Counted from the stretch's first letter, positions 3,166 through 64,000 are shown. The stretch: 64,000 nt of DNA from Bacilli bacterium (GCA_040396875.1 JBBAWZ010000001.1:174198-238197), one strand, 5' to 3'. The notes: a model not told the origin generated them from the sequence alone. Numbers and translations: made by a program.

Positions 3166-3171
3166 AGTATA

Positions 3172-19737: not shown

Positions 19738-20634
19738 CTAAAGAGGCATCATGGCAGGTAAATGAATCGGCTTGGTGATGATTTGAACAAGTTGTAACCA
19801 GTCTGTCATTAACATACGTTTGTCTTTATAACCTTTAAATAACCCTTCGAGTTGTAAGATGGGTACCGTACTTGTCACCATCGTAATCAACCCTTGCTTT
19901 TGTCGGGCAATAAACAATGGAATTAAGACATCAATTAACATATCTTCACTAATTGGTTGCGAACCTAATCCATCTAAAATAAGCACGGATAGTTTTTGAA
20001 GACGATCGAGTTCACGACTAAAACCATTAGCATCTAATTTTTTATTCGAAATTAATCTTGGTAATTGAAGATTGAAATCAAGCATGCCTACCGTGCCTAA
20101 TTCATTAAGTGCAAACCGATAAGCAAAAATACCTAAGGCAAAGGATTTACCAGATTGATGAGGACCAATAAGCGCTAGACCATCCGTGGTTTGTTTTTGC
20201 AATACTTTCATTAAATAGACATACAAAGCTTTTTGACCTTCACGTTGTTTCAATGATTCGAAAAGTTTAGAATCTTTCCAATCGGCATTAAAATCATCAT
20301 AAATTAAGAAGCGAGATACCTTTAATTGATCATCAAGCATTGGACAAGGGGCAAATTTACGTTCTAAAAATCCAACGGCGTTGCGTTGCATACTCACGAC
20401 ATAATGACCTTGAGGTTTTAAGCACTTACCAGCTAATTTACATTGTTGTACTTCTTGTTCATCAACTTCTAATTTAAGTAAAGTTGATAGATGCTGTTGG
20501 ATTTCTGATTCTTTAATCTTTAATGTTTCAATCGTTTTTTTCAACCATTTACTTTGCTTGACTTGGATGATGGCTTGTTTGATCGCATCTTCAAAATCAT
20601 CCTGAATTAGAGGTTTTGGATTAATCGGTTTCAT
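19738..20634 (-). CDS. dnaI: primosomal helicase loader DnaI
   Basis: 298 aa with Walker A GPHQSGKSF, Walker B VLILDGLG and an N-terminal Cys-containing region. It lies downstream of the dnaB-type gene with an ATGA overlap. Confidence 0.8.
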   Translation of the reverse strand: MKPINPKPLIQDDFEDAIKQAIIQVKQSKWLKKTIETLKIKESEIQQHLSTLLKLEVDEQEVQQCKLAGKCLKPQGHYVVSMQRNAVGFLERKFAPCPMLDDQLKVSRFLIYDDFNADWKDSKLFESLKQREGQKALYVYLMKVLQKQTTDGLALIGPHQSGKSFALGIFAYRFALNELGTVGMLDFNLQLPRLISNKKLDANGFSRELDRLQKLSVLILDGLGSQPISEDMLIDVLIPLFIARQKQGLITMVTSTVPILQLEGLFKGYKDKRMLMTDWLQLVQIITKPIHLPAMMPL

Positions 20635-21890
20635 TTTAAACCCTTCATCTTGTTTTCGAGTTGATCAAGTTCACCTTCATCAACGTTGTTCACTGGAATT
20701 TTAGTATCGCTATTTGCATTCGAAATAGTAGGTTCTAGGATTTCTTTTTTCATTGGAGCTTTCGATGGTCTTGGTTGACTTAATTGATAAAAATAATCCA
20801 TGGTATCGATGGCATGTTGAACGTTAGCTCGGGTTAAACTACCTGCTAATTTTTCAACATATCTTGAACTTAAAACATTATTTTGGGTGGTTAAGACATG
20901 GTGGATTAATGCATTAATCACACTGGTTGGTAAGGCATATTGATTTTGTAATCGCAGTAAGAGACTAAAGTCTGCAGGAGAGACTTCTGCACCTTGTTGT
21001 TTCATCATTAAAAAGTCTACAGGAGACATCATTTCCATTTGATTCATTAATTTTGCTTGGGTTGAAGTTTCTTGTAATTGAACCTTTTGTTGTTGCCTTT
21101 GTCGAATAAAGGAAGGTATACGTTTTTCTTGGCGGGCTGCTTGCATCACCTTATCCATGTTTAAACGGTGATTTAAATCTAGATTGGTTCCAACAATATC
21201 GGCAGCGGCAAGCTCATCTAATCCCGTTAAGGCTGCGATAGACACCATTTGTTTAATGTCTTCTGCATTGAGTTTTTTAACATCAATAGAAAATTGATGT
21301 TGTAATTGTTCTGCAAATTTTAATTGATCAAAAGGTTGTCTGATTTCTGCTAATGATTTTCCTTTAACATTTGAATGGGCTTGATTTAAAAATGCTGGAT
21401 GATTTAAATCTGGATGGAATACTTCTCCAAAACTAATTGAGACTTCCTTGGATTGTGGGTCAATAGCAGGTGTCATGTATTTGGCTTCAATTTTTTTGAG
21501 GTACAAATTATTCGTTCGTTGAATCAATAAACCCTTTAGAATAGGATCATCCATAAAGGCTTTTGGAGATTTAGGGGCGTAAAGAGAAAATGTAAATAGG
21601 TTCGTTTTTTCAAAGGTTTGGTGGTACGTTCTCAAAAGCCCAACCGCCTCTAATTGAGTTCTGGCAGATTGAAAGGTTTGTGGGGAAGTTTGAAAATATG
21701 ATAGAAAAGTTGAAAAAATAATTTGATTTCCCTCTAATAATTGATCTTGTTGCTTTAAGCCACCATATAATCCAAGAGCCTCTACACCAAGAAATGGGGC
21801 ATAAGCTTCAAATAAAAATTCTAGATCCAACGAAGATATCATTGATTCTGAGCGTATTTGAATAAAATCTTGACTCGTAATAATTTTCAT
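20631..21890 (-). CDS. dnaB: replication initiation/membrane attachment protein (Bacillus DnaB type, DnaD-like domains)
   Basis: 419 aa. The call rests on its position immediately upstream of dnaI and on length and composition consistent with Firmicute DnaB. It relies mainly on synteny. Confidence 0.65.
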   Translation of the reverse strand: MKIITSQDFIQIRSESMISSLDLEFLFEAYAPFLGVEALGLYGGLKQQDQLLEGNQIIFSTFLSYFQTSPQTFQSARTQLEAVGLLRTYHQTFEKTNLFTFSLYAPKSPKAFMDDPILKGLLIQRTNNLYLKKIEAKYMTPAIDPQSKEVSISFGEVFHPDLNHPAFLNQAHSNVKGKSLAEIRQPFDQLKFAEQLQHQFSIDVKKLNAEDIKQMVSIAALTGLDELAAADIVGTNLDLNHRLNMDKVMQAARQEKRIPSFIRQRQQQKVQLQETSTQAKLMNQMEMMSPVDFLMMKQQGAEVSPADFSLLLRLQNQYALPTSVINALIHHVLTTQNNVLSSRYVEKLAGSLTRANVQHAIDTMDYFYQLSQPRPSKAPMKKEILEPTISNANSDTKIPVNNVDEGELDQLENKMKGLK

Positions 21891-26105: not shown

Positions 26106-26322
26106 TAAATCAGCGTTAAAGAAGCTTTGTGAAATGACATCGCGTATAGAGAGTTAAGAAGCGTTGGTGAAATCTTAACCGCATCCCATTCCGCATCACC
26201 ACTTCTATTAAAAGTAACGCACCGTTTGCTCGCGTTAAGAGCCATGAGTGTACATGCCCTATGCATGTAAATTAAGGTGGTACCACGCACGTGAAGCGTC
26301 CTTATGAATGGACGTTTTTTTA
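26106..26322 (+). promoter_or_regulatory. T-box leader (Thr) with terminator
   Basis: Stem I elements are present (AGAGAG, GGTGAAA). The candidate specifier is ACC followed by A at 26198-26201. The T-box sequence AAATTAAGGTGGTACCACGC lies at 26269-26288. It is followed by the hairpin GCGTCC..GGACGT, a T7 run, the SD AAAGGAG and the ATG at 26338. Confidence 0.85.
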
Positions 26323-28279: not shown

Positions 28280-28404
28280 TAGCGTTGTAAAAATAGAAAG
28301 TAGAGGCGTCCGCTTCTCACCTGATTCTGATTCAGAATGGGTCAATCGCTAGGAATTTAAACTTCTAAGATTGAATAATGGACGCTGCTCGCGTCCATTT
28401 TTAT
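28280..28404 (+). promoter_or_regulatory. L20-leader-like transcription attenuator upstream of infC
   Basis: A perfect 8-bp terminator hairpin, ATGGACGC-tgctc-GCGTCCAT, lies at 28378-28398 and is followed by TTTTTATTT. An upstream copy of GCGTCC at ~28306-28311 could pair with GGACGC as an antiterminator. The location matches the Firmicute infC operon leader. Confidence 0.6.
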
Positions 28405-28424
28405 TTAAAAGGAGTGTGATCTAT

Positions 28425-42966: not shown

Positions 42967-43147
42967 AAAAACCTCCTAAAAAAACAAAAACGCCCTGGAA
43001 AGGACGCTTTTGCGTGGTACCACCTTTGTTTGCATAACATTATTATGCACGCTTGATAACTTTAACGGTGTTAGCGAAGGTTGCATTGATAGGTGAGAGG
43101 AAAGCGAAGCTTTCGTTAGTCTATCCAACCTTATCGTCATTTTACCA
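42967..43147 (-). promoter_or_regulatory. T-box leader (Leu), compact, with extended -10 promoter and terminator
   Basis: The minus strand has TGGTAAAAT (43147-43139), then CAAAGGTGGTACCACGC (T-box), then the hairpin GCGTCCT-ttcc-AGGGCGT, TTTTTGTTTTTTT and AGGAGG. The candidate specifier is CUC followed by A (CCTCTCACC). Confidence 0.75.
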
Positions 43148-43165
43148 TAATTAGGGTGAAAATCG

Positions 43166-43221: not shown

Positions 43222-43416
43222 ATGGCAAGAGTATGTACTGTTTCCGGTCGAGGACCGATGAGTGGCAATGCCCGTTCACACAGCTTACGTGCAACACGTA
43301 GAACTTGGAATTTAAACTTACAAAAATATCAAATCACAGAAAATGGTATTACCAAAACTGTGAAGATGTCCGCCCGTGCTTATCGTACCTTGATGAAAAA
43401 TCAAGCTACCCGATAA
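43222..43416 (+). CDS. rpmB: 50S ribosomal protein L28
   Basis: 64 aa: MARVCTVSGRGPMSGNARSHSLRATRRTWNLNLQ. Confidence 0.9.
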   Translation: MARVCTVSGRGPMSGNARSHSLRATRRTWNLNLQKYQITENGITKTVKMSARAYRTLMKNQATR

Positions 43417-44068
43417 GCCATTCTATTTGGGTTAACAAAACCCAAAGCATCACATTCGCTAACGATAACCACTGCGTATAGGCCATCACAAAAAAGGTTG
43501 GTCGACGATACAGTGGTTTTTCATTTGTGCTCTCAACTTTTTCAAGTAAAGCCCAATCTTTTAATCGTGGATTCATAAGCAAGGATAATTGAAAAATCCC
43601 TTGAGCTAAGGTCGTCCATGGTAAGAACGTTTGAAATTGAGGATAAGGTGATGTAAATGTAACATAACTACCTAAGAATAAGATAGCAACGATACTGACG
43701 CCGTATAAGGTCACCATCCATATATACATTTCAATTTTCCTGGGCTCTAAGGTAAAAATACCCATCGTGGATATTAAAAAAATGATCATCAAAGCAAGGA
43801 GGACATAGGTAATCGGTAAGTTAGGATAAACAAACATGCTTTCCCAGTATGCAAATAAACAAACCAAAAAGAAAATAAACAACCCTTTAAGTGGTTGAAA
43901 GGTGTACATAGAAGCGATGGGTGTTTCATGAAGTTCAAATGGTAAATGATGATGGAATTGGTAAGGTGTTTTTTTGATCGCCTTAAATTGGGTCAATCCA
44001 AAAAATAGATATCCACTCAATAAGACAAAGATAAAAATCCAAAGCATCCAAAGCAATGCATCATTCAT
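43406..44068 (-). CDS. hypothetical polytopic membrane protein
   Basis: 220 aa with about six hydrophobic segments and no motif I recognise. It is co-directional with and overlaps rpe (44061-44068). Its 3' end overlaps the convergent rpmB by 11 nt. Confidence 0.55.
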   Translation of the reverse strand: MNDALLWMLWIFIFVLLSGYLFFGLTQFKAIKKTPYQFHHHLPFELHETPIASMYTFQPLKGLFIFFLVCLFAYWESMFVYPNLPITYVLLALMIIFLISTMGIFTLEPRKIEMYIWMVTLYGVSIVAILFLGSYVTFTSPYPQFQTFLPWTTLAQGIFQLSLLMNPRLKDWALLEKVESTNEKPLYRRPTFFVMAYTQWLSLANVMLWVLLTQIEWLIG

Positions 44069-44726: not shown

Positions 44727-45578
44727 TTAGTACTCCTTTTGTTCGGGTAATTGATAAAGCATCTTTAAGTAATCTTGATAGATCTCTAATGGAATTTTAC
44801 CACTTTTGACGTCTTGAAGAATTTGGCATCCTGGTTCATGTTGATGGGTACAATTAAAGAACTTACATTTTGAAAACTGATGTTCAAATCCAGGATAAAC
44901 TTTTGCAAGTTCATTTTGCAACATTGGAAGTTCGAGTGAAGAAAATCCAGGAGTATCAGCCATAAAGCCACCAAGCCAAGGTAATAACACCACCTCTTTT
45001 GTTTGGTGTTTACCTCGTCCTAATGCTTCTGAATAACTACCAATTTGTCTAGAGAATAGAGGGTTTAGTGCATTGATAATGGTAGATTTTCCAACACCGG
45101 TTTGGCCGGCAAAGGCAATCACTTTATTGGGTCCTATTAAACTGGATAAGGCTTGTTGGTCAGGATGATGTTTATCAAAAAATAGGATTTTAAAACCATG
45201 TTGTTGAAGATACGTCCAGTCCTGTTGATGATGGGTGATGTTCCCTTGATCGATCTTGGTAATAATGTTGGTGATGTTTAAATTATAATACCGACCAAAA
45301 CTGATGAATTTTGCCAAAAGAAAAAATGAATATAGTGGTTCGACTAAACTTGTGACGATGATAAGGTCTGTAAGATTACTAACTCTCGGCCTTTTAATAA
45401 AAGTTTGACGAGGATGAATGCTGGTAATCATGCTGAGATTTACATCAAATTCAACATGGTCGCCTACAACTGGTTTGATTAATAATTTATCGGTTTTTCG
45501 AATATGACAAGAATAGATTTGCTCTTGATAATAGACAAGGTACTTCCCAAAATCTAAATTAACGATGGTCCCTGTCAT
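44727..45578 (-). CDS. rsgA: ribosome small-subunit-dependent GTPase A
   Basis: 283 aa with a circularly permuted GTPase (NKIDQ-like TKIDQ, AGQTGVGKSTIINAL) and the zinc knuckle CKFFNCTHQHEPGC. Confidence 0.9.
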   Translation of the reverse strand: MTGTIVNLDFGKYLVYYQEQIYSCHIRKTDKLLIKPVVGDHVEFDVNLSMITSIHPRQTFIKRPRVSNLTDLIIVTSLVEPLYSFFLLAKFISFGRYYNLNITNIITKIDQGNITHHQQDWTYLQQHGFKILFFDKHHPDQQALSSLIGPNKVIAFAGQTGVGKSTIINALNPLFSRQIGSYSEALGRGKHQTKEVVLLPWLGGFMADTPGFSSLELPMLQNELAKVYPGFEHQFSKCKFFNCTHQHEPGCQILQDVKSGKIPLEIYQDYLKMLYQLPEQKEY

Positions 45579-46465
45579 ACTTCATCTACTTTTAAACCTA
45601 ATAATTTTGCCCAGAAAGAACGTTTTGGAGTAATTAATTTAGGATGATCTAAACACTCTTTGATGTCTCTTTGAAATTCCAAAACCGAACGATAACGATC
45701 ATTTGGATTTTTTCTACAGGCTTTTAAAATGATTTTTTCAATCACCCTGGGAGTTGAAGGAATCCATTGTCTTGGAGAAGGAAATTTTTCTTTAATATGA
45801 CGCATTGCAACGGTAATTTGATTATTGCCTTCATACGGAACTTTGCCCGTAATCAATTCAAAAAAAGTAATGCCTAAGGAATAGATATCACTCTTGAATG
45901 TCGGTGATTGACCATTGGTTACTTCCGGTGGTAAATAATGGACGGAACCGATGATTACTTGGCTTTTCGTGACGCGACGAGAATTTTCAAAAAAGGCAAT
46001 ACCGAAATCGCCTAACTTAATGGTTTCATCCGGCGTTAAAAAAACATTGTCAGGTTTAATGTCGCGATGAATCACCAAGGAGTTATGAGCAAAGGCAACT
46101 GCATCACATAGTTGATACATCATTTCACAAGCTTGTTTGAATCCAAATCGTTTTTGTTCGTCTAACAAACCTCTAAGGGTTTTGCCTTTGATGAGTTCAG
46201 AGGCCATATAAGGTAAGTTTTGATGGTAACCAATATTAATGACTCGAACAATATTGGGATGATTTAAAGAAGCCGATGCTCGTGCTTCTCTTTCAAAGCG
46301 GGTAACATTATCTTTTGATTTAATCGCAGTTTCTTTGATGATTTTTAAGGCGATTTCTTTTCCGGTAATCAGATCTTCTGCTTGATATACGTAGGCAAAT
46401 CCACCTTCACCTATTTCTCTGATGACTCGATAGCGTTCATCAATAATATCGTTATCTTTAATCAT
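45575..46465 (-). CDS. Ser/Thr protein kinase, kinase domain only (PrkC-like without TM/PASTA)
   Basis: 296 aa with GEGGFAYVY, HRDIKPDN, DFGIA and SVHYLPPE. It ends ~25 aa after the kinase domain. Confidence 0.9.
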   Translation of the reverse strand: MIKDNDIIDERYRVIREIGEGGFAYVYQAEDLITGKEIALKIIKETAIKSKDNVTRFEREARASASLNHPNIVRVINIGYHQNLPYMASELIKGKTLRGLLDEQKRFGFKQACEMMYQLCDAVAFAHNSLVIHRDIKPDNVFLTPDETIKLGDFGIAFFENSRRVTKSQVIIGSVHYLPPEVTNGQSPTFKSDIYSLGITFFELITGKVPYEGNNQITVAMRHIKEKFPSPRQWIPSTPRVIEKIILKACRKNPNDRYRSVLEFQRDIKECLDHPKLITPKRSFWAKLLGLKVDEV

Positions 46466-47205
46466 CGTTCAGATTCCCAAATTGCCACAGCAATATTGTC
46501 ATTTCCGCCATTTGCATTGGCTAAGTTAATCAAAGAATCTACCTTTTGTTGAGGGGTATCTTTTGAACGAATAATACTGGATAATTCACCTTCCGTTAAA
46601 TTGTTATATAAGCCGTCGCTGCAAACCAAAATGGTTTGTCCGTGATAAGGGACGATTTTAACATCATATGACACGGAAGTATTAAGCCCTAAGGCATTGA
46701 GTAAAACATGACGCTGTGGGTGGTTGGCCTTTTGTGCTTCGGTTATTTTACCTTGGCGGTATAAGTATTCTACATATGTTTGATCTTCGGTAGCCTGCGT
46801 TAACGCACCATCTTCAAATAAGTACACTCTTGAATCACCGATATTTAGAATAATCAGATCTTTATTGACAATTAAAGCTATGACTAAGGTCGTACCCATT
46901 TCTTTTAATGAAGAACTTTTTTGGGCTTCTTGGTAAATAGAGCGGTTTGCTTGGACCACTTGTTGTCTCAACCAAAGCGTTGCAGTTTTAGACGTTAATA
47001 AACCAAAAGTATTTTTAAATCCTTTAATGAGGGATTGCATAGCCAGGCGACTTGCAAGATCACCGCGAGCGTGACCACCCATCCCATCCGCGACACCAAG
47101 CAAAATATCTTGATGACGGTTGACCATCGCCACCACTTGATCTTCATTGGTGGTTCTAACTTTACCAATGTCAGTTTTAAAAGCAAAACTACCGCGCTTC
47201 TTCAT
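46462..47205 (-). CDS. prpC: PP2C-family Ser/Thr phosphatase (PrpC/Stp)
   Basis: 247 aa with GVADGMGGH, LVCSDGL and GGNDNIA. Confidence 0.9.
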   Translation of the reverse strand: MKKRGSFAFKTDIGKVRTTNEDQVVAMVNRHQDILLGVADGMGGHARGDLASRLAMQSLIKGFKNTFGLLTSKTATLWLRQQVVQANRSIYQEAQKSSSLKEMGTTLVIALIVNKDLIILNIGDSRVYLFEDGALTQATEDQTYVEYLYRQGKITEAQKANHPQRHVLLNALGLNTSVSYDVKIVPYHGQTILVCSDGLYNNLTEGELSSIIRSKDTPQQKVDSLINLANANGGNDNIAVAIWESER

Positions 47206-48239: not shown

Positions 48240-49496
48240 TTATTTCTGCTTTCTCATTGCAGCGACATACAATGCTGTATTTAGTTTATCAAAAGGCAAA
48301 TACTGAAACTCTTGAATGAGCTTGAAAGCAGGATGTGCCGTCAAGAATTCTGCGATCAAATATTTTCCTTCTTTATGATTAAGTGTGTTGACGCCGTAGA
48401 AAAGCAATCCACCTTCTTCGACAAATTGACTTGCTTCATGGATTGCAGATTGCTGACTGGTAATCAAAGTATCAAGTTCTTCTTGTTGAAATTGGATGAA
48501 GAAATCTGGAAGAGAACGAATTAAATCAAATTTTGAACATTGGGGGACCACCATGACAACATCTTGTTGTTTTGATAAATGGGTTATTAAACCTTTGGGT
48601 TCTGCTTCATACAAAGAAATATTTTGAAGTTGAAACGCTTGTAAGGATTTTTGCATCGCTAATTTTCTTTCAACCGAGTTCGTCGCAATGTTAATTTTTA
48701 TTTGTTGCTCAGTATAAATGGGTAATTCTAAATACAAGGCCTGAGGTCTTGTTTCGACCAATAACATTTCACCTTTAACATTGTCAAAACTAAATTGTTT
48801 GACGATATCCGTGACTGCAAGTCGTTGTTGAAAAATTAAATTTTTAACATATGCTGGATGATTTTTTAAAGGTTCTTTTGCTTGATAAATGACAGTATCT
48901 TCAACGGGTGTTGTTATGAGGTCTGGATAGGTGGAAAGTAATTTCTCAGTGGTAATTCTTAAAGTATTGACACGGCATGCTTGCAATACCGGTTTATTAT
49001 TGGTGGATAAAATCTTAAGAGTGATTGGAAAACCAAAGTGTTTAATCCACATTTGAACTAACCAATCAGGCGTATTATATTTAATTGCTAAATATGGTAC
49101 TGAGTTTTCCTTTAAATTGGGGTCGATTAGATTTTTTCCTGGACCTGCTAAATTGATGATGGTTTCTATTCTACTTTCAGGGATTTGTTTTTCTTTGAGA
49201 AAGTCCTTTAAAAATGAAATCGTCAACTCATGTGGCATGCGTTTTACAAATACATTGTTGCCAATCGCCGTTTGAACAATATAACGATCTTCTAGTGCTA
49301 ATTCAGGAATAAATCGTTGGCTAAAGTGATCGAGTAAACGATGGTGATGTAATTCACAACTCGTTAACGAACGAATCAATCCTTGAGAAACGGATTTAGG
49401 AGCAGTGGCTAATCCAGACTTTAAAGCATCAGAAAATTGAATTTTCTCATTGATAATTTGATGTAGAATTTGACTCACTAAGATATATTCAATCAT
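48240..49496 (-). CDS. RsmB/Sun-like protein with NusB-like N-domain but apparently degenerate methyltransferase motifs
   Basis: 418 aa in the syntenic rsmB slot upstream of rlmN. By eye, motif I (CAAPGGK) is replaced by VETRPQA, motif IV DAPCSG becomes VVPQCSK, and motif VI TCS becomes NTL. Confidence 0.65.
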   Translation of the reverse strand: MIEYILVSQILHQIINEKIQFSDALKSGLATAPKSVSQGLIRSLTSCELHHHRLLDHFSQRFIPELALEDRYIVQTAIGNNVFVKRMPHELTISFLKDFLKEKQIPESRIETIINLAGPGKNLIDPNLKENSVPYLAIKYNTPDWLVQMWIKHFGFPITLKILSTNNKPVLQACRVNTLRITTEKLLSTYPDLITTPVEDTVIYQAKEPLKNHPAYVKNLIFQQRLAVTDIVKQFSFDNVKGEMLLVETRPQALYLELPIYTEQQIKINIATNSVERKLAMQKSLQAFQLQNISLYEAEPKGLITHLSKQQDVVMVVPQCSKFDLIRSLPDFFIQFQQEELDTLITSQQSAIHEASQFVEEGGLLFYGVNTLNHKEGKYLIAEFLTAHPAFKLIQEFQYLPFDKLNTALYVAAMRKQK

Positions 49497-49514: not shown

Positions 49515-50015
49515 TTAAGCAATTTTTTTCTTTTTGGTTTTTGAAGAGGTAACTTCCCGATTAAGTTTTTCTAATTCAGTTTCTTTACCGGCAAAAATAT
49601 TACCGTGGTAAATTTCAATATTCTTATCCGTTTCTTCTTCTTCAACTTCTTGCTCAATTGCAACTTCATTGGTTTCATTGACAAAAAGAGGATAATCCTT
49701 TTGAATAAAAGTGGAAACCGAATTCGGTTTTTGAAGAATAAATTCAAAGTGAATATGAATAGTGTTATCTTTTAGAGCCTTGATGAACATCGCGCGTAGT
49801 CCTTCTTGGACATGAGCTAACGTTTCGGGCATAGAAATTTTAATAAATGTATGCCAAGCATTTTGATCGACGCCAGCATGAAAGAGTAAGGTTTCATGGA
49901 CAGAAAAAAATAAACTATTTTCATCCATTTTAGTTAGTTGAACAATGGGTTTTTGTAGTTCGCGGCTCAGGGTCGCTACCACATATTTATCTAATCCAAA
50001 AATTTCGATATGCAT
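49515..50015 (-). CDS. hypothetical protein with acidic then Lys-rich tail
   Basis: 166 aa. The SD GAGGA is 6 nt upstream of the ATG. The N-terminal ~100 aa loosely resemble small DUF1904/tautomerase-like proteins by eye. The tail is EQEVEEEETD...SSKTKKKKIA. Confidence 0.5.
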   Translation of the reverse strand: MHIEIFGLDKYVVATLSRELQKPIVQLTKMDENSLFFSVHETLLFHAGVDQNAWHTFIKISMPETLAHVQEGLRAMFIKALKDNTIHIHFEFILQKPNSVSTFIQKDYPLFVNETNEVAIEQEVEEEETDKNIEIYHGNIFAGKETELEKLNREVTSSKTKKKKIA

Positions 50016-55916: not shown

Positions 55917-57563
55917 ATGAAGATGGCTTTTAAATTAAAATACCTTGGTCAAGAAGCGATATTTCAAGATAAAGTAGCACTTAAAAAGTTATTACCAGAT
56001 CAGCACCAATATTTGTGTGCCAAAGTAAACCATCGCATTCGTGATCTAAATTATGAAGTTTATTTTGATGCCAATATTGAGTTTTTGACGATTTTTGATC
56101 AAGACGCAGTGCGAACCTATGAAACGACACTTCGTTATTTACTGGCGATGGCCGTTTATCAACTTAACCCCAGTTATCGCTTTCGTTTTTCTTACCATAT
56201 TTCTAGGTCTATCTTTATGGAATTCAGTCAACCAAAAAAAATTGATCCTTCGTTTGTAGAAAAAATTAATCAAAAATTAACCCAGCTTGTTCAGGATAAT
56301 GTCAGTTTTGATCGTCTTATTGTTCCAAAAGAAGAAGCTATTCAATTATATGAAAAGTTAGGTTATACCGATAAGGTTGATATTTTAAAATATAGACCGG
56401 AAAAAACCGTTCACTTCTATCAAAGTGGTACGTACACAAACTATATGTTTGGTATGATGGCCATTTCTTCACGTTTAATTAAAGATTGGAAATTAATTTA
56501 TTACCCTCCAGGTATCATCATCCAATATCCTCGCTCGGAAATGAAAGGTAAAATTCCAGTCTTTGAAGATGCACCGATGTTCGGACAAACCTTAAAAGAA
56601 AGTCATGCTTGGTCGAAAATTACCCAAGCTGATACGGTTGCAAATATCAATCATTATGTCAGTGAAGACAAGGTTGTTGATTTTATCAATTTGTGTGAAG
56701 CAAAGCATGCACGGATGTTAGTAGAATTAGGTGAGGCCATTGAAAAAAGAAGGGATGAATTAAGATTGGTTTGTATTGCAGGGCCTTCTAGTTCTGGTAA
56801 AACCACGTTTGCAAACCGTTTAAGAATTGAACTGATGTCAAGAGGTTTTCAACCGATTCGTATTTCGATTGATGATTATTATTTACCAAAAAATGAGGCA
56901 CCAAAAGATAGCGATGGTAAACCTGATTTAGAAAACATTCACGCTTTAAATTTACCTTTATTCAATCAACATTTAGCTCAACTAATTAATGGGGAAACTG
57001 TGACATTACCTCAAAGTAAATTTGATGCTTCATTAGGGAAAGCTAAAACCTTAAAAATTCAAGAGGACACTCTCATCATTATTGAAGGAATACACGCCCT
57101 TAATGACGCTTTAACGTCTTTAGTGCCAAAAACCCAAAAATATAAAATCTATATTTCTCCACAATCACAAATTAATTATGACCACCACAACCCCATGTCT
57201 TTAACTGATCTTCGATTATTAAGACGAATGGTGAGAGATAAAAAATACCGTGGTTCTAGTGCCGAACAAACCATCGATATGTGGCCTTCCGTCCGTCGTG
57301 GTGAGTTTACTTGGATCTATAAAACACAGGAAGAGGCTGACTATGTTTTTAACTCCTTTCTACCTTATGAACTTTGTGTGATGAAACGGTATGCGATTCC
57401 CTTATTGTCTGCCATTCAAAAAGAATCCACTTATTTTCCAACCGCAGAACGATTGATGCGTATGCTTAAATATTTTGTCGATATGGAAGAAAAATGGATT
57501 CCTTCGAACTCTTTAATCCGTGAATTTATCGGCGGTTCTTGTTTTAGAGAAGTGGAAGATTAA
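55917..57563 (+). CDS. uridine-kinase-family P-loop kinase fused to an N-terminal TGS/ThrRS-SAD-like region
   Basis: 548 aa with Walker A AGPSSSGKTTFANRL in the C-terminal half and udk-like IIEGIHALN. The N-terminal ~250 aa resemble the ThrRS N-terminal region. The SD AAGGAG is 5 nt upstream. Confidence 0.7.
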   Translation: MKMAFKLKYLGQEAIFQDKVALKKLLPDQHQYLCAKVNHRIRDLNYEVYFDANIEFLTIFDQDAVRTYETTLRYLLAMAVYQLNPSYRFRFSYHISRSIFMEFSQPKKIDPSFVEKINQKLTQLVQDNVSFDRLIVPKEEAIQLYEKLGYTDKVDILKYRPEKTVHFYQSGTYTNYMFGMMAISSRLIKDWKLIYYPPGIIIQYPRSEMKGKIPVFEDAPMFGQTLKESHAWSKITQADTVANINHYVSEDKVVDFINLCEAKHARMLVELGEAIEKRRDELRLVCIAGPSSSGKTTFANRLRIELMSRGFQPIRISIDDYYLPKNEAPKDSDGKPDLENIHALNLPLFNQHLAQLINGETVTLPQSKFDASLGKAKTLKIQEDTLIIIEGIHALNDALTSLVPKTQKYKIYISPQSQINYDHHNPMSLTDLRLLRRMVRDKKYRGSSAEQTIDMWPSVRRGEFTWIYKTQEEADYVFNSFLPYELCVMKRYAIPLLSAIQKESTYFPTAERLMRMLKYFVDMEEKWIPSNSLIREFIGGSCFREVED

Positions 57564-58804
57564 GCTTCGAGATCTTCAATTGATTTAGGAATATCAATCG
57601 ATAAATTTTCACAACCTTTTTCTGTGATTAAAATGTTGTCTTCAATGCGGATACCAATACCTAATTCTTTAATATAAAGTCCAGGTTCAACCGTAATGAC
57701 ACATCCTGGTTCTAAAGGAATTTCGCGGCCAATTGGATCATGGGTATCTAATCCTAAATGATGGCCCACATTATGATAGTAAATAGAACCAATTTCTTCG
57801 GGCGTCTTGATGAGGCCTTCTTTGACTGCTGCTTCACTTAAAAACTTCATCACAGCTTGTTGAAGATCAACAATTTTTAATCCGGGTTTCGCCATTTGAA
57901 TAATCATTTGATTAGCCTTTAATACAATCCCATAGATTTGTTTTTGTAATGGATTAAACTTTCGATTTGCTGGATAGGTACGTGTGATATCACCACGATA
58001 TTGGCCATAAGTCGCTCCTAAATCACAAAGGACAAGGGCGCCATCGTTAATTTTATCTTTAGGGTTGGGATAGTGAAGGACAACTGCATTTTTACCACTG
58101 GCAATAATGGTTTCAAACGCTAAACCCATATTCTGATATTCTTTAATCGCATATTGAAAAAGGGCTTCGATTTGATGTTCGTATAATCCTGGCTTTAAGT
58201 GCTTTCGAATCGATTGTAGACCGTAAGATGTTCCTTTTATAGCTTGGCGAATGGCTTCAACTTCTTTGACGGATTTAATCATTCTTAACTTCGTAATTTG
58301 TGGGTAAATGTTTTCAATAATCAGTTGTGGTGATTGTAACTTTAATTCGTCTCCATAGCTTTCAGGGGTTTTTAATTTACCATCAAGAATAAGTTGTTTT
58401 TCTTTATCTAAATAAGCGTGGGTAATTTTTCCAAATCCGTTGGTATCGAGAAGCATTTCCTTTAATCTAGTATCAAACATGGAGAGCATAAAGACATCGT
58501 GAATGCCACTTAGTTTAGTTGCAGTATCCACATCTAATTTTTTTCCAACCCAACGCGTTTTCGTTTCATCAATTTCATCGATAAATAAGTAGGTTTTAAC
58601 GGTTGTCGGTGTTTTAATCATCACCAAAACACTATTTTCTTGCTCAATACCAGTTAGATAATAAAAGTTTTTATTGATTACAAATGGATAGGTCGCATCT
58701 GCAGAGGATTTTACCAACCCACCTGCAAACAAAATGATCATCGATTGCTCCATGACCTGAGCAAACAATTTTTCTCTTCTTAAGCTAAATTCTTTAGCAT
58801 CCAT
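57560..58804 (-). CDS. pepP: Xaa-Pro aminopeptidase (M24B)
   Basis: DLGATYGQYRGDITRT, HNVGHHLGLDTHD, VEPGLY and IRIED. The ATG at 58804 is 8 nt after GGAGG. The track start at 58855 overlaps the upstream gene. Confidence 0.9.
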   Translation of the reverse strand: MDAKEFSLRREKLFAQVMEQSMIILFAGGLVKSSADATYPFVINKNFYYLTGIEQENSVLVMIKTPTTVKTYLFIDEIDETKTRWVGKKLDVDTATKLSGIHDVFMLSMFDTRLKEMLLDTNGFGKITHAYLDKEKQLILDGKLKTPESYGDELKLQSPQLIIENIYPQITKLRMIKSVKEVEAIRQAIKGTSYGLQSIRKHLKPGLYEHQIEALFQYAIKEYQNMGLAFETIIASGKNAVVLHYPNPKDKINDGALVLCDLGATYGQYRGDITRTYPANRKFNPLQKQIYGIVLKANQMIIQMAKPGLKIVDLQQAVMKFLSEAAVKEGLIKTPEEIGSIYYHNVGHHLGLDTHDPIGREIPLEPGCVITVEPGLYIKELGIGIRIEDNILITEKGCENLSIDIPKSIEDLEA

Positions 58805-58808
58805 GAAT

Positions 58809-59564
58809 TTATTGCCTCCATGATTGAACCAATTGACGAATGGTGTCCATGTCAATTGTTTCTATCTTACCATTATCTATCAATTTAGGTAATTGTGAAT
58901 CCAAGGGTAGTTGGGCTAGTAAAGGTAACTGATACTTTTGCCAAATGGTTGGTCTGTTACTGGTGTGAAATAAAGGATGCTTCTTCTGACATTGATCACA
59001 GATAAAATAACTATAATTCTCAATAATCCCAAGAATAGGTTTGTTTACAATCTTCGCCATTTGAATACCTTTACCAACGATATCTTGAACGATATCTTGA
59101 GGCGTTGTTACCATGATAATGGTGTCGACATTCAAACTTTCAAGGACCGTCATGGATACATCGCCCGTTCCAGGTGGCAAATCGATGAAAAGGTAATCCA
59201 AATCACCCCAAATTACATCCACGTAAAATTGTCGAATCAAATCAAGTACCAGAGGAGACCGCCACACAATCGGATCATCCGATTGATCTAAAAGTAATTG
59301 GGAAGAAATAAGCCGAATACCTAAGGGGCTTGTAATCGGCAATATCAATCCATCCTGACCAACGACTTTCGATTGGATAGCGAAAAGTCGAGAAATGGTT
59401 GGACCAATAATGTCTGCGTCCAAGATACCTACTTTTTTTCCGATTCTAGTTAAATGTGTTGCGAGTAAAGCAGTAATGGTGCTTTTACCAACACCGCCTT
59501 TACTTGACATGATTGCAATCGTATTTTGAGCTTTACTTTGCTGGTTTAAACGATACACCTTCAT
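58809..59564 (-). CDS. Mrp/ApbC/NBP35-family P-loop ATPase (Fe-S cluster carrier type)
   Basis: 251 aa with the deviant Walker A SSKGGVGKST, DLPPGTGD and the CxxC motif (FICDQCQKKH). Confidence 0.85.
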   Translation of the reverse strand: MKVYRLNQQSKAQNTIAIMSSKGGVGKSTITALLATHLTRIGKKVGILDADIIGPTISRLFAIQSKVVGQDGLILPITSPLGIRLISSQLLLDQSDDPIVWRSPLVLDLIRQFYVDVIWGDLDYLFIDLPPGTGDVSMTVLESLNVDTIIMVTTPQDIVQDIVGKGIQMAKIVNKPILGIIENYSYFICDQCQKKHPLFHTSNRPTIWQKYQLPLLAQLPLDSQLPKLIDNGKIETIDMDTIRQLVQSWRQ

Positions 59565-59567
59565 AAA

Positions 59568-62500
59568 TTATGCGTTGAATGCGTATTCAATTTTTTCACC
59601 TTCTATTTCAAAAACAAAGTTTAATTCATAGGGTTCTTGACTTAAGGTAGTTAAAATACCACTTGGATTTGTAAACGGATTTGGTGTTGTCACCGTAATG
59701 ATTAAGGCCGAAAGACCATCAAAACCAGAATTCGTAACAATTCTAGCAGCATAAAATAATTGTCCAACTTTACTTAAATATATATTTGACCATCCTGCAT
59801 AGTTCGTAGCTGTAGGATAAGGCCCACCCGTCACATTCAATGAAATTCTAGAACCCATTTTGATAAGGGCAGCTTTCATAGCAGTGATATCAGATGAGTT
59901 GGGAGTTCCGCTAACACCTTTAATAGCAGATAAAAATTCAAGTGACCCTTCTAGACCTATCGCTTCGATTGGGTTCAATAGTTCAAAATCAGTATTGCCA
60001 TCTTGGTTCAAATCATAAAAATTTAATTGTTTAGATATATTATTGGCATCACCGAAAAATATGGCATTGGTATCTTCTACGATTGCATATTCGCCTTTAA
60101 AAATATCGGTGAAAAATCCTGCAGATAATTCTGAAACCATAAAAGCCCGATCTATGATAGTTTGCCCAGTAGCCACATAAGTCAATTCAATAAGCGAACG
60201 CATTTCACTACTATATTGATCTAGGCTAGATGCGTCTGATAAACTCGTAAAATTAGAAATAACCCCTATAAATTGGTCTAATCGTGAAGCCTCAAAAACT
60301 TCATCAAAATCCCCACTAAATATTTCTTCAACTCGAATTACCTTTAATTCTTTATCAGAGACTAAAGTGGTTAAGTAATCAAAATACTTACTTACACTTG
60401 CTGTATTTAAAAAGTTATAAAATGTTAAAGATCGTGTTTTAAAACTTCCGATTGTGGTTACATTAAATGGCGTCAATCCTGTATTGGTGGCATCTGGATT
60501 CAATATTTTAGTCGCATTATTTCCAAATATTTGCGAATTACTTAATAAATTTACCAATGGATATAGGGAACCTCCATCAGCTAAGAAATTACTGACATTG
60601 AAGCCACCACTTATCGATATATACTCTTCTGTGATTTGATCATAAAAGCTATTTAATAATCCATCAATAAGTCCAGAAGAAATGACGGTGCCAGGAAGAG
60701 TAGAATAATTCATAACGTTAATATCGGCTGATAAAAATTGAACCGGCGTTAATTCATAGGTTTCATTGTTTTCTGTATAGGTTCCAAAGTTGATGCTACT
60801 AAAAGCATCCTTAACCATTTTTTTAACAGCGTCTGCTGTCAGTGATGAATAATTTAAGACTGACATAATTCTTCCAATTGAACTAGGTGACAAAGATCCT
60901 GCATCTATACTTGAGGCATTACCTAAGTTAGGTAAAGCGACTTTTAGCTCCTTAAAAATTCTAAAGAATGCATTGATTTCTCCTACATTTTCGTCATCAA
61001 GCCAGTTATCGGTTAAGTGGGTCGAATTATTGGTTGGAAAAAGCGTTGCATAATTTAGAACTAATGCATCTGCTTTCGCATTCGCATTTCCATAAACAGC
61101 GTCTGCCAAGCGAGCTGCATCATAAGCCAGGCTTGCCATACCTGTATCCTTAAACATTTTTGCCATCATTTGCTCAAAGATTGTTAAATCATCAGCATCG
61201 GCAGTTGAAGGACCAGTTAAATTAAAGACTTGCGAATCATGTAAATCTCTTACTAAATTAGCCATATCATCAATTGCTTGGTCTGATAAATCTTTAATTG
61301 AACCATAAGCACGATTACCAACAACTTTCACATCCGAGAAAATAGATAAAATTGCTGAAATTTCAGCGTTATCGTAAGGCATATATTGATCGCCAACTGA
61401 AAGATTATTAGGATCATTTCTTGTTCCTCTATAACGGAAATTGGCAAGAGTAAAATCAACACCAACTGAAGAAAAATCCCCTCCTTCTAGCATATTAGAG
61501 AATAAATTTGGAATTGCAGGATAAACAATTGTGGAGTTATTCATACTTAATAGTAGGTTTTCTATTTTCGCTAACCCTACTGGTGTATCAATTAAATTTG
61601 ATAATGTATCAGAAGAGCCTGCTCCAGAAAAAGAAGCAAAATCTAAGTCTAAATCTTTAAAGGCTTCTAAAATGGAGATAATCTTTGAAATTTCTCCCGT
61701 GCTACCTTTCCAACTATCAGGATTAATTGAAACTGCAAAATTATTAGGAATTACACTTATATCATCTTGTAAATAGTTAAGTCGATTCGTGTTGCTTTCA
61801 CCATCAAAAACAAATGTATCAAGTGTGGAAGTGTTTATGATCATTCTTACCGTTTGTTCAAAAATTGTTAAGTTATTGTTTGCATATGAATTGCCAGTCT
61901 TAAATGAATTAAATACATAAGAATCGTGCATTTTATTCAATAAGTCATTAAATAAAACTGGATTGATTAGTTCTGAAGTAAAGGCAGTTCCACCAGTTAA
62001 ACCAATAGCATTGATATCTGAATAAATGTCTAAAATTTGGGAAATTTCTTGGCCCCTATCAATTTTACTTGACTCAACATTAAAGTAATTTGTATTTGCA
62101 TCGCTCATGGTTAAACCATTGATATTAAAGGAATCGGAATCAAAGATGTTACCAAATAAATTTCCAATGGAAGGAGCGACTAATGTTGAGTTGTTCATCG
62201 ATAATAATAAATTCTCTACTTTTGCTAGGCCCGGACCTGTACTCAATAAATCAGAAATCGCATCGCCACCAAAGTTAGCAAAATCGATATCAGTATCTTT
62301 AAAGGATTCAAGAATACCAATAATTTGATTAATTTCACCATTATTGCCAGTCCAATCATCGTCCGTTAAACCATTACCAAAATTATTATCTAGGTCGGCA
62401 ATATCATCTTGAAGTAACAGTAAGCGATTGGCATTGAGGGGTTCATCGTAAATAAAGGTATCAAGGGTTGAGGTATTTAAAATCATGCGAACCGTTTGTT

Positions 62501-64000
62501 CAAAAATGGTTAAATCATCTAGTAAATAACTATTTCCAGATTTAAATGAGTTGAAAACATTTGAGTCATGCATTTTATTAAGTAAAGCATCAAATAAAAC
62601 TGGGTCTATTAAATCAGCTGAAAATGCTGCTCCACCGGTGATACCAATACTATTGATATCCCAATAAATATCGAGGATTAAACTAATTTCTGTTGCTCGA
62701 TTGGCCTTGAGTGGTTCTTGATTAAAGAAATTCGTGTTCGCATCTGACATGGTTAATCCACCAATGTTAAATGCATCAGAACCAAACACATTTCCAAATA
62801 GATTTCCTATGGCAGGTGAAATAATGGTCGATTCATTCATCGATAATAAAAGATCTTCTACTTTTCCTAAGCCAATTTCCGTATTCAATAAATCACCAAT
62901 GGCGTCTCCGCCAAAGTTGGTAAAGTCAATACCAGTATTCACAAAAGCCACCATGATATCGACGAACCGTTGAATCTCGCCATCGATACCATCCCAATCA
63001 TCCGGTGTTTCAGTTCCAAAATTATTATCAAGTGAAGTCATATCTTGATAAAGGGCTGCTTCTCTTTGAACTTCTGTAAGACCATCATAAATAAACGTAT
63101 CAAGCGTGGCAGTAGTGAGCAAAAATTGATAGGCTTGTTCAAATACAGTTAAATCACCATTCAAACGCGAGCGACCTAATTTAAATGAATTAAATAAAGC
63201 GGCATCATGAAGAATGGTGAGTAAGTCACCCACCGTAAGGATTGTAGATTCATCAAAATTTGCAATATCAAATGCACCACCACCATCAAGTCCCATATCG
63301 CTAATCGTGTCTAATAAATCAGCTGTTGCTTGTATTTGTTGTGCTCGACCAGCTTGATTTAAATCTAAAAATACAAAAGTGTTGGTTTGCGATAAAGAAA
63401 GGGACCCAATGTCAAAATTTGAACCACCAAAGATCGAATCATAAACGTTATAAACTAGAACCCTTAATGAAGAAGCATTATTCAACGCTAGCAAAACATC
63501 GGAAATCGTTTCACCGCTTAATCCAGTTCCAGAGGTGAGGTCAGAAATGGATACATTTTGTAATTCTGAGATAAATCCGACAATGTTTTCTAATTCACCA
63601 CCCACAAATTCATATTGAATATCGCCATTTAAATCTAGAATGGGATCGCCATTACCATCAGTGATGACAGTTTTGATTCCAAACCAATTTGCTCGTGTTG
63701 AAACTTGATTACTAATCGCATAAAAATCTTCTGTTACGATGGTGAAATTATCTCCCGGATTGTCATCCCAAGTTGATTGATAAGGTGAAGGATCTTCAAA
63801 ATAACTTGCTAGATCTGCGATGCCTGTAAGTTGATCTAATAAAAAATCTGGAAAGACATAGTCTCCATTAGGTTTGATAAAGATTTGTGATGCAGCTAGG
63901 CCTTGTAAAAGTTCTTCAATCATCGATACATCTGAGTTTAAGAAATCTATATTCTCTAAGCCATCTGCAAAATTAGTTAACTGTTTTACTAAGTACATCA
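59568..64000 (-). CDS. very large acidic, Cys-free tandem-module protein of unknown function (N-terminus probably beyond the right window edge)
   Basis: An uninterrupted frame of 1476 codons to the window edge. Five to six modules of ~215 aa are present (see findings). I recognise no domain family. Confidence 0.8.
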   Translation of the reverse strand, partial: MYLVKQLTNFADGLENIDFLNSDVSMIEELLQGLAASQIFIKPNGDYVFPDFLLDQLTGIADLASYFEDPSPYQSTWDDNPGDNFTIVTEDFYAISNQVSTRANWFGIKTVITDGNGDPILDLNGDIQYEFVGGELENIVGFISELQNVSISDLTSGTGLSGETISDVLLALNNASSLRVLVYNVYDSIFGGSNFDIGSLSLSQTNTFVFLDLNQAGRAQQIQATADLLDTISDMGLDGGGAFDIANFDESTILTVGDLLTILHDAALFNSFKLGRSRLNGDLTVFEQAYQFLLTTATLDTFIYDGLTEVQREAALYQDMTSLDNNFGTETPDDWDGIDGEIQRFVDIMVAFVNTGIDFTNFGGDAIGDLLNTEIGLGKVEDLLLSMNESTIISPAIGNLFGNVFGSDAFNIGGLTMSDANTNFFNQEPLKANRATEISLILDIYWDINSIGITGGAAFSADLIDPVLFDALLNKMHDSNVFNSFKSGNSYLLDDLTIFEQTVRMILNTSTLDTFIYDEPLNANRLLLLQDDIADLDNNFGNGLTDDDWTGNNGEINQIIGILESFKDTDIDFANFGGDAISDLLSTGPGLAKVENLLLSMNNSTLVAPSIGNLFGNIFDSDSFNINGLTMSDANTNYFNVESSKIDRGQEISQILDIYSDINAIGLTGGTAFTSELINPVLFNDLLNKMHDSYVFNSFKTGNSYANNNLTIFEQTVRMIINTSTLDTFVFDGESNTNRLNYLQDDISVIPNNFAVSINPDSWKGSTGEISKIISILEAFKDLDLDFASFSGAGSSDTLSNLIDTPVGLAKIENLLLSMNNSTIVYPAIPNLFSNMLEGGDFSSVGVDFTLANFRYRGTRNDPNNLSVGDQYMPYDNAEISAILSIFSDVKVVGNRAYGSIKDLSDQAIDDMANLVRDLHDSQVFNLTGPSTADADDLTIFEQMMAKMFKDTGMASLAYDAARLADAVYGNANAKADALVLNYATLFPTNNSTHLTDNWLDDENVGEINAFFRIFKELKVALPNLGNASSIDAGSLSPSSIGRIMSVLNYSSLTADAVKKMVKDAFSSINFGTYTENNETYELTPVQFLSADINVMNYSTLPGTVISSGLIDGLLNSFYDQITEEYISISGGFNVSNFLADGGSLYPLVNLLSNSQIFGNNATKILNPDATNTGLTPFNVTTIGSFKTRSLTFYNFLNTASVSKYFDYLTTLVSDKELKVIRVEEIFSGDFDEVFEASRLDQFIGVISNFTSLSDASSLDQYSSEMRSLIELTYVATGQTIIDRAFMVSELSAGFFTDIFKGEYAIVEDTNAIFFGDANNISKQLNFYDLNQDGNTDFELLNPIEAIGLEGSLEFLSAIKGVSGTPNSSDITAMKAALIKMGSRISLNVTGGPYPTATNYAGWSNIYLSKVGQLFYAARIVTNSGFDGLSALIITVTTPNPFTNPSGILTTLSQEPYELNFVFEIEGEKIEYAFNA
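60010..63611 (-). repeat. coding tandem repeats, period ~620-710 nt (206-238 aa), 5-6 diverged copies
   Basis: Anchor motifs recur at regular spacing. GE[IL] occurs at aa 134/340/554/768/1006 (degenerate ~1240). LLLSMN-like occurs at aa 169/383/597/815/1044. LT[IV]FEQ occurs at aa 283/496/710/938. Confidence 0.8.

Follow-up and report, generated by a model that had tools for sequence, protein, structure and literature searches.

A hydrophobic anchor keeps the staphylococcal proteins Ebh and Embp in the cytoplasmic membrane. Gli349 and Gli521 of Mycoplasma mobile run to several thousand residues and contain internal repeats; transmembrane segments tether them to the cell surface in a genome-reduced group related to the Bacilli. 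Giant alpha-helical repeat rods of the Ebh/Embp type are known on Gram-positive surfaces (PMC7587433), and giant surface proteins are known to act as steric shields (PMC4856396). Besides adhesion, roles in envelope architecture and steric shielding have been proposed for Ebh and Embp (PMC7587433, PMC4856396). Losses of peptidoglycan, teichoic acids, and sortases have occurred repeatedly among the Bacilli orders related to Mycoplasma, and related uncultured orders include both walled and wall-less lineages, some of them without sortases (PMC10868615). Here, we analyzed a 64,000-nucleotide (nt) stretch of DNA from a Bacilli bacterium (GCA_040396875.1, JBBAWZ010000001.1:174198-238197), referred to below as the window, whose last part (59568-63998, minus strand) encodes the C-terminal portion of a giant acidic protein built from tandem modules. 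The best explanation of our results, which we consider to have an even chance of being correct, is that this protein is a membrane-rooted, exported, polyanionic helical rod. Such rods would coat the cell surface or act as spacers, and the number of modules would determine their length.

By analogy, Ebh and Embp would be the functionally closest known system. The giant protein resembles them in its very large size, its acidic composition, its Gram-positive lineage, its hydrophobic membrane anchor, and its tandem all-helical modules forming a rod, the anchor and the rod being predicted in our case. However, it showed no sequence or profile similarity to these proteins, and Pfam scans found neither FIVAR nor GA domains. 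Its modules comprise 214 amino acids (aa) and about 10 helices instead of three-helix bundles, its anchor is an N-terminal four-helix domain instead of a C-terminal single helix, and the YSIRK signal peptide is absent. Membership in the FIVAR-GA family of the Ebh/Embp type was therefore rejected, as the repeats, the signal, and the C-terminal anchor were all absent. Gli349 and Gli521 share with the giant protein its size, internal repeats, and transmembrane tether, the surface location being predicted here. In contrast, no sequence relationship to them was detected in any search, no gliding machinery is implied, and the host uses the standard genetic code, unlike the Mollicutes hosts of Gli349 and Gli521.

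The frame contained 1,476 codons without a stop and was open to the window edge. A search of 5.8 billion proteins recovered 39 relatives, about 29 of which were full-length (1,963 to 2,430 aa). The best match was P0001, a 2,403-aa orthologue that was 98% identical across the whole fragment. The protein thus comprises 2,403 aa, of which the fragment supplies the C-terminal 61%; its true start lies 927 codons past the window edge, with a GGAGG ribosome-binding site 6 nt 5' of the true ATG. The first complete codon of the frame is also ATG, and the first-pass annotation of this DNA had rightly cautioned that it was no proof of the N terminus; this Met is internal and aligned with M928 of P0001. 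The annotation had also proposed that frame disruptions in an independent assembly would point to a pseudogene. No frame breaks were found in the roughly 29 full-length orthologues, which came from independent NCBI, JGI, ENA, and Logan assemblies, and six orthologous loci contained no internal stops. The same 2,403-aa product was encoded on at least six contigs from separate NCBI and JGI projects. The ratio of nonsynonymous to synonymous substitution rates (dN/dS) was 0.05 at a dS of 0.24 for the closest compared orthologue (L005) and 0.06 to 0.11 for more distant orthologues, and the level of conservation was even from end to end, with no hypervariable tip. As judged from these substitution rates, the gene is functional and under strong purifying selection; it is not a pseudogene, because its dN/dS is 0.05.

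The orthologues came from metagenome-assembled genomes (MAGs) of Lake Mendota, Lake Tanganyika, La Plata, and US rivers, labeled as Bacillota, Bacilli, or Bacillales bacterium, and the giant gene is a single-copy, core, vertically inherited gene in this uncultured freshwater Bacilli lineage. Related genes were located on single contigs of 0.67 and 1.25 Mb, and the genomes of the relatives appear to be small. A LeuRS search, with matches down to 65% identity, gave no label other than Bacilli bacterium MAGs. Two lake MAGs carrying an orthologue, L006 (CAMCVC010000005.1) and L012 (CAMBSI010000014.1), were titled Staphylococcus epidermidis, which, given their content and habitat, is almost certainly a taxonomic mislabel.

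Next, we examined the N-terminal part of the full-length protein. It opens with a conserved, approximately 210-aa membrane domain of four helices (aa 1-215), followed by a conserved helical membrane-proximal region of about 400 aa. Hydrophobic helices were located at about aa 20, 45, 135, and 185 in nearly all full-length family members. In single-sequence phmmer searches, the membrane domain and the next 400 or so residues were the most widely conserved parts, being found in 117 and 93 of the 147 remote representatives, respectively. Among 19 diverse N termini, G36, G40, P201, Y239, S242, and D261 were invariant, and the conserved blocks LWHxxFKxFIPKxxRKxxKxRL, PFTSxxN, DAYDxSxFAQxxFNWT, and LPIAxxxAxNxDEV were recognized. 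Loop 1 and loop 3 carried net charges of +2.3 and +7.0 and were positive in all 19 members, whereas negative net charges were obtained for the N-tail (-1.2), for loop 2 (-3.2), and for the 190-residue stretch past helix 4 (-18). According to the positive-inside rule, basic loops face the cytoplasm. Because loops 1 and 3 would then be cytoplasmic, we infer that the giant acidic part lies outside the cytoplasm, with helix 4 as a signal-anchor.

Since it begins with a four-helix membrane domain, the protein is predicted to be membrane anchored and not secreted freely. The first-pass annotation had suggested a surface or secreted structural protein or adhesin; the predicted topology makes a structural protein or adhesin at the surface plausible and speaks against free secretion. 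The annotation had also reported no transmembrane helix, lipobox, or sortase signal in the last 250 aa, which holds for the fragment but not for the full protein with its four N-terminal membrane helices. No LPXTG-like motif was found in the fragment with the regular expression [LIV]P.[TSA][GANS], the C terminus (...EGEKIEYAFNA) was hydrophilic, and no hydrophobic segment was detected past aa 632 of the full protein. A sortase-anchored surface protein was rejected on the basis of the missing motif and the hydrophilic C terminus. A bacterial lipoprotein was likewise rejected, because a lipobox is impossible in a protein without Cys in any of its 2,403 aa. The N-terminal membrane anchor is consistent with a sortase-free surface display.

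The amino acid composition also set the protein apart from its genomic background. As the first-pass annotation had described, the fragment was Cys-free, acidic, and poor in His, Trp, Arg, and Lys, with counts of 0 Cys, 5 His, 8 Trp, 28 Arg, and 39 Lys, 196 Asp plus Glu versus 67 Lys plus Arg, and a pI of 4.05. Lys plus Arg accounted for 4.5% of the fragment versus 11.7% of the genome background. The Cys content of the other 49 open reading frames (ORFs) of the window was 0.68%; at this frequency, the chance of zero Cys is 4e-5 for 1,476 residues and 8e-8 for the full 2,403 residues. Every freshwater orthologue examined contained no Cys. Among exported proteins, 70% in aerobic Firmicutes lack Cys versus 33% in anaerobic Firmicutes (Daniels et al., PMC2823432). 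By analogy, it can be argued that total Cys exclusion in the oxic-water clade alone is easier to reconcile with exposure outside the cytoplasm than with a cytoplasmic location.

The tandem organization of the fragment was then assessed. All three anchor motifs of the first-pass annotation were recovered to within one residue: W.G..GEI starting at fragment aa 335, 549, and 763, LLLSMN[NE]ST at aa 383, 597, and 815, and [DN]LT[IV]FEQ at aa 282, 495, 709, and 937, with diverged copies legible near aa 134, 169, 1006, and 1044. The autocorrelation of the fragment under BLOSUM62 peaked at a lag of 214 aa (+0.42 versus a background of -0.84 +/- 0.11, about 12 standard deviations), with a harmonic at 427 to 428 aa. 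BLASTP of the whole fragment against itself returned the identity match only, and BLASTP of segments of P0001 gave off-diagonal offsets of 213 to 216 and 427 to 432 aa with E values down to 1e-56. A hidden Markov model (HMM) was trained on the central three modules across the orthologues; it recovered two diverged copies that were not in its training set, with independent E values (iE) of 6e-14 and 3e-5. After one iteration, five modules (M0 to M4; Table 1) tiled aa 1011-2071 of P0001, corresponding to fragment aa 84-1144. Tandem Repeats Finder reported no match in the DNA, because it accepts periods of up to 500 nt, shorter than the 642 nt needed here, and because the copies share only 65% identity. 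The periodicity of about 214 aa, for which an objective repeat finder had been proposed as the check, was thus seen by autocorrelation, segment BLASTP, and HMM search alike.

The closest pair of modules, M1 and M2, was 63% identical in protein and 65% identical in DNA, with saturated synonymous sites, and M2 and M3 were 51% identical in amino acids. Because even the closest pair has diverged this far, the comparison supports an old duplication of the modules and not an assembly artefact, as the first-pass annotation had proposed. Profile-profile comparison of the module with the rest of the ectodomain gave matches at P0001 aa 364-431 (E = 0.014), 586-689 (E = 0.008), 786-971 (E = 9e-4), and 2119-2308 (E = 0.004). 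The last of these lends weak support to a degenerate copy that the annotation had placed near fragment aa 1240, and nt 59856-60425 of the C-terminal region may accordingly be one further degenerate module (hhalign with the module profile, E = 0.004). Taken together with the clear modules, these matches imply module starts in P0001 at 307, 551, 751, about 981, 1209, 1422, 1636, 1864, and 2112, with a spacing of 200 to 248 aa. These weak matches are not convincing one by one; because they share one phase, they suggest that some 10 modules, mostly ancient, make up the entire ectodomain, five of them being clear. The last 330 aa were found in only 5 of the 147 remote representatives by phmmer, and the C-terminal region gave no match to PDB sequences.

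No EF-hand-like loops were found in the modules by a pattern scan. A single EF-hand/dockerin-like loop of the form D-x-N-x-N-[DG]-x-[LF]-D-x-x-D was located at P0001 aa 811-822 (L001 12431-12466, beyond the window). This pattern occurred 0.09 times on average in shuffled sequences, and the loop was kept in the freshwater clade only, being absent from P0034 and the remote members. This loop, in the membrane-proximal part of the ectodomain, might bind Ca2+. A Ca-binding repeat protein with an EF-hand/dockerin or RTX array was rejected, as there was one conserved loop and no array.

The number of modules differed among the orthologues. In the full-length alignment, exactly 214 aa (P0001 aa 1420-1633) were missing in 13 orthologues, and 427 to 432 aa were missing in five, giving classes with five, four, or three clear modules. 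These classes did not track the overall identity between orthologues: the three-module P0028 was 77 to 78% identical to the five-module P0004 and P0005, and 56 to 70% identical to other three-module forms. The alignment, in which the placement of gaps inside repeats is ambiguous, suggests that whole modules were gained or lost repeatedly among close relatives, and the family offers a clear example from nature of protein length being tuned in units of whole modules.

Structures were predicted with AlphaFold2. The model of fragment aa 277-1476, for which 28 orthologues were aligned as input, had a mean predicted local distance difference test (pLDDT) score of 82.6 and was almost entirely helical, with a like pattern of about 10 helices in each module. 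The model of the first 1,200 aa of P0001 had a pLDDT of 69 overall and 70 to 90 from aa 310 on, where it was all-helical. We then searched both models against 350,542 PDB chains with Foldseek, as had been proposed for the module. No match was found at an E value of 0.001 or below, and one model searched against BFVD also gave no match. The best neighbors of the two models had E values of 0.012 and 0.028, probabilities of at most 0.47, and TM-scores of 0.1 to 0.2; at E values of 0.012 to 0.1, the top neighbors were CAND1, TRRAP, She4, karyopherins, and beta-catenin. In the models, the giant protein resembles such ARM/HEAT solenoids (CAND1, karyopherins, She4/UNC-45, and beta-catenin) in the general architecture of stacked helical hairpins, which would indicate only a generic helical-solenoid character. 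In contrast, its 214-aa super-repeat has no counterpart among them, and they are cytoplasmic and eukaryotic. Assignment to the ARM/HEAT superfamily was rejected, with Foldseek E values of 0.012 or higher, TM-scores of 0.2 or lower, and no Pfam ARM/HEAT match.

The distribution of the family was determined with a module profile of 23 sequences (A3), which HMMER compared exhaustively with 1.84 billion representatives, with clusters counted at 50% identity. The search retrieved 170 clusters at an E value of 1e-3 or below, 120 of them at 1e-10 or below. Almost all were 1,500 to 3,000 aa long (one was 4,489 aa), with 3 to 11 module matches apiece. By this profile, the giant protein is not an orphan, as 170 clusters carry the module. 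The remote representatives were annotated just as "hypothetical protein [Bacilli bacterium]" in the 19 clusters looked up. The family is defined by the four helices at the positions given above with G36, G40, and P201, by the DAYDxSxFAQxxFNWT and LPIA...N.DEV region, and by at least two modules matching A3; the fragment has the modules, and full-length P0001, 98% identical to it, has the helices and the conserved N-terminal blocks.

The first-pass annotation could name no family for this protein, and the databases supplied none. Pfam gave no usable match for the fragment, P0001, or 4 plus 18 remote members, no NCBIfam model covered any family member tested, and PDB sequences were not matched by the module profile, the C-terminal region, or the N-terminal profile (A4). 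A word-index search with A4 returned five fragments. A match to PF09722 in the fragment (E = 0.003, 27 residues) and matches to VTT_dom, DUF637, DUF7212, and DUF5332 in single remote members were judged to be due to chance or lineage specific. PADLOC-DB gave no match for P0001, P0087, and the neighboring CPBP and TraX proteins, and on this result an anti-phage defense reading was dropped. In the literature, nothing specific was found on such proteins or on a freshwater wall-less Bacilli lineage. A family of 170 clusters thus has no name, domain model, or structural relative.

These observations can be combined as follows. The two strongly basic loops of the membrane domain would lie in the cytoplasm, helix 4 would serve as an uncleaved signal-anchor, and the acidic chain of about 2,190 residues would be exported via Sec and stay tethered. 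The exported chain would form an elongated helical-repeat rod of roughly tens of nanometers, as estimated from helix counts. Many such rods would make up a dense, negatively charged, thiol-free coat or spacer with a thickness set by module number, and this layer would be a structural or protective part of the envelope (a steric shield, a cation buffer, or a barrier to phages or grazers) and not a variable adhesin. Strong and even purifying selection, a single-copy core gene, and the lack of a recognizable binding domain support a structural role over an adhesive or antigenic one. Maintaining a 7.2-kb gene at a dN/dS of about 0.05, in a gene order shared by lake plankton and distant MAGs, is costly for a cell, and the surface coat, if true, bears on how envelopes are built in the Mycoplasma-related Bacilli orders. 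We also considered a broader, speculative version that as a whole is probably wrong. In it, the family would be the main protein envelope or exoskeleton of genome-reduced, sortase-poor Bacilli with thinned or lost peptidoglycan and teichoic acids; a polyanionic brush of module-tuned thickness, matured by CPBP, TraX, and thioredoxin (Trx) proteins, would replace wall polymers in their spacing, charge, and barrier roles.

Several observations weigh against a surface coat. The membrane domain was modeled with low confidence (pLDDT of 40 to 60), and helix 3 is a hydrophobic stretch of about 40 residues, which would change the topology if it crossed the membrane twice. The remote family members contain 5 to 28 Cys (about 0.3 to 1%), so that Cys exclusion is not a family-wide trait, and Pfam recognized no extracellular domain in 18 of them. 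The top structural neighbors, although nonsignificant, were ARM/HEAT-like solenoids, which are typically cytoplasmic. Finally, the conservation of gene order described below may be mere general synteny, and the more distant P0136 and P0058 lie in another context, without a CPBP neighbor.

Much of the same evidence would favor a cytoplasmic scaffold, in which a giant solenoid is fixed by the four-helix domain on the cytoplasmic side of the membrane. There it would organize other proteins, such as those for division, membrane shaping, or transport, and would be a greatly enlarged counterpart of EzrA and similar helical-repeat proteins with a membrane anchor. The sole structural neighbors are cytoplasmic solenoids, the Cys content of the remote members is cytoplasm-like, no extracellular domain or sorting signal was found, and the gene is probably co-transcribed with housekeeping cytoplasmic genes. 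However, in all 19 members the charge distribution puts the large domain and the two basic loops on different sides of the membrane, and a cytoplasmic location leaves unexplained the zero Cys in about 2,400 residues of the freshwater orthologues, set against 0.68% in the genome, as well as the depletion of Lys and Arg. We regard such a scaffold as unlikely; if the protein is cytoplasmic instead, it would be among the largest bacterial helical-solenoid scaffolds.

An adhesin would share the export and rod form of the surface coat, with its modules as a stalk and its clade-specific C terminus binding particles, algae, cells, or host surfaces. Known fibrillar adhesins combine an anchor, a repeat stalk, and a distinct tip in this way, and the C-terminal 330 aa are indeed specific to the freshwater clade, module number varies as in stalks, and one remote member had a subthreshold match to DUF637 ("possible hemagglutinin"). 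We nevertheless find this reading rather doubtful, given a dN/dS of 0.05 to 0.11 without a hypervariable tip, a single-copy gene in a fixed housekeeping context across large evolutionary distances, no detected binding domain of known type, and hosts that appear to be free-living lake and river plankton.

The membrane domain itself might be the working part, with a CvpA-type role in transport or membrane homeostasis that the giant extension regulates or gates. This domain together with aa 216-600 is the most widely conserved portion and holds the invariant residues. Colicin_V (CvpA, PF02674) was the commonest subthreshold Pfam match, occurring in 7 of the 19 N termini. CvpA likewise has a four-helix membrane domain of about 200 aa, in which helix 1 is followed by Gly-x-x-[RK]-Gly and a run of basic residues, and a basic loop leads through R-L-x-G into helix 4. 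Unlike the giant protein, whose domain bears a 2,200-aa extension, CvpA stands alone at about 160 to 200 aa. The link is weak: the best E value was 0.0052, the gathering cutoff was reached in none of the 19 N termini, and P0001 had no PF02674 match at an E value of 1 or below. Alignment of A4 to E. coli CvpA (b2313) by hhalign, with a single-sequence template of low sensitivity, covered 30 columns comprising helix 1 and the RG motif (E = 0.02, probability of 2.4%). A CvpA-like character is thus weakly indicated, as a lead and not as membership, and we know of no established mechanism for CvpA. Moreover, some 2,200 residues under strong purifying selection would be excessive for a regulatory appendage, making this role very improbable. 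Lastly, a mis-assembled repeat or a decaying gene that is still open, for which only the unusual size and composition speak, is practically ruled out by the at least six contigs with an identical product, the roughly 29 full-length orthologues, the six stop-free loci, the dN/dS of 0.05, and modules that are 65% identical in DNA.

Table 1. Features of the giant gene, its downstream neighbors, and leader RNAs in the window
Feature	Window position (nt)	Strand	Position in protein	Remarks
C-terminal 1,476 codons and stop of giant gene	59568..63998	-	fragment aa 1 = full-protein aa 928	98% identity to P0001
Tail of non-amplified N-proximal ectodomain, possibly end of a degenerate module	63750..63998	-	fragment aa 1-83	weak HMM/profile-profile matches, P0001 aa 916-967, 786-971
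Module M0, diverged, with beta-hairpin-like insert	63156..63749	-	fragment aa 84-281; P0001 aa 1011-1207	found at iE 6e-14 by an HMM built without it; aligned in A3
Module M1	62517..63155	-	fragment aa 282-494	HMM iE 4e-98; about 10 helices in AlphaFold2 model
Module M2	61875..62516	-	fragment aa 495-708	HMM iE 1e-100; missing from 2,188-2,216-aa orthologues
Module M3, with insert of about 14 aa	61191..61874	-	fragment aa 709-936	HMM iE 4e-91
Module M4, diverged	60567..61190	-	fragment aa 937-1144	found at iE 3e-5 by an HMM built without it; aligned full-length after iteration
C-terminal freshwater-clade region	59571..60566	-	fragment aa 1145-1476	AlphaFold2: mostly helical, short strands
Mrp/NUBPL-type P-loop ATPase (iron-sulfur cluster carrier family)	58809..59564	-		PF10609, E 6e-79; 3 nt past giant stop
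Xaa-Pro aminopeptidase (AMP_N + Peptidase_M24)	57560..58855	-		Pfam; downstream of giant gene, order kept in six lineages
Leader RNAs (three T-box, one L20)	26107-26306, 2993-3167, 42997-43153, 28292-28412	+, -, -, +		Rfam models

The neighborhood of the giant gene was compared among the orthologous loci. The Mrp/NUBPL ATPase gene is probably co-transcribed with the giant gene, and the same arrangement was found in L001-L004, L020, L022, and L024. Upstream of the giant gene, beyond the window (L001 7965-9919), are genes for a thioredoxin, a TraX-family membrane protein, and a CPBP/Rce1-like membrane protease, all transcribed divergently from it. This trio adjoined the giant gene in six lineages (L001, L020, L022, L023, L024, and L017), although only the CPBP gene was visible in L017, where the locus is cut short. 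The order Trx <- TraX <- CPBP, giant -> (Impact_N) -> Mrp -> aminopeptidase P was found around P0087, P0063, P0044, P0051, and P0062, whose N-terminal regions were only about 20 to 35% identical. The CPBP gene stayed adjacent to the giant gene despite insertions, such as a methyltransferase gene between TraX and CPBP in L022. As a conjecture, CPBP, TraX, and Trx are candidate processing or assembly partners, which is not separable from synteny.

The window otherwise encodes housekeeping functions, including aminoacyl-tRNA synthetases, DnaE, PolA, glycolytic and glycogen enzymes, PriA, and EzrA. No tRNA genes were found in the 64-kb window, and ORFs 19738-20634, 20631-21890, 43406-44068, 48240-49496, and 49515-50015 had no Pfam match at 1e-8. 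No peptidoglycan genes were found in the window, which is a small part of the genome; the wall-less cell suggested in the first-pass annotation is neither supported nor contradicted. Genes for a PrkC-type Ser/Thr kinase and a PP2C phosphatase adjoin each other at 45575-46465 (-) and 46462-47205 (-). The kinase comprises just 296 aa, and neither PASTA repeats nor a membrane segment was detected beside its kinase domain, a hint of a lineage without peptidoglycan sensing. A 548-aa protein at 55917-57563 (+) carries a uridine-kinase/PRK domain in its C-terminal half only (aa 285-480), with weak STAND/AAA hints, and counterparts of 546 to 549 aa lie at a like position near the giant gene in L017 and L020. 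T-box leaders were located upstream of thrS (72 bits, E = 1e-13), pheS (53 bits), and leuS (49 bits), and an L20 leader was located upstream of infC (52 bits). All four scored below the Rfam gathering cutoffs (93 and 58.7 bits), so that a default scan gives no RNA; they look like shortened or diverged standard Bacillota leaders. Finally, a 466-aa ORF at 18329-19729 (+) joins Fapy_DNA_glyco and H2TH domains (aa 1-223) to a CoaE dephospho-CoA kinase domain (aa 280-425). Formamidopyrimidine-DNA glycosylase and CoaE, which we take to be encoded by separate neighboring genes in Bacillus, appear to be fused in this ORF.

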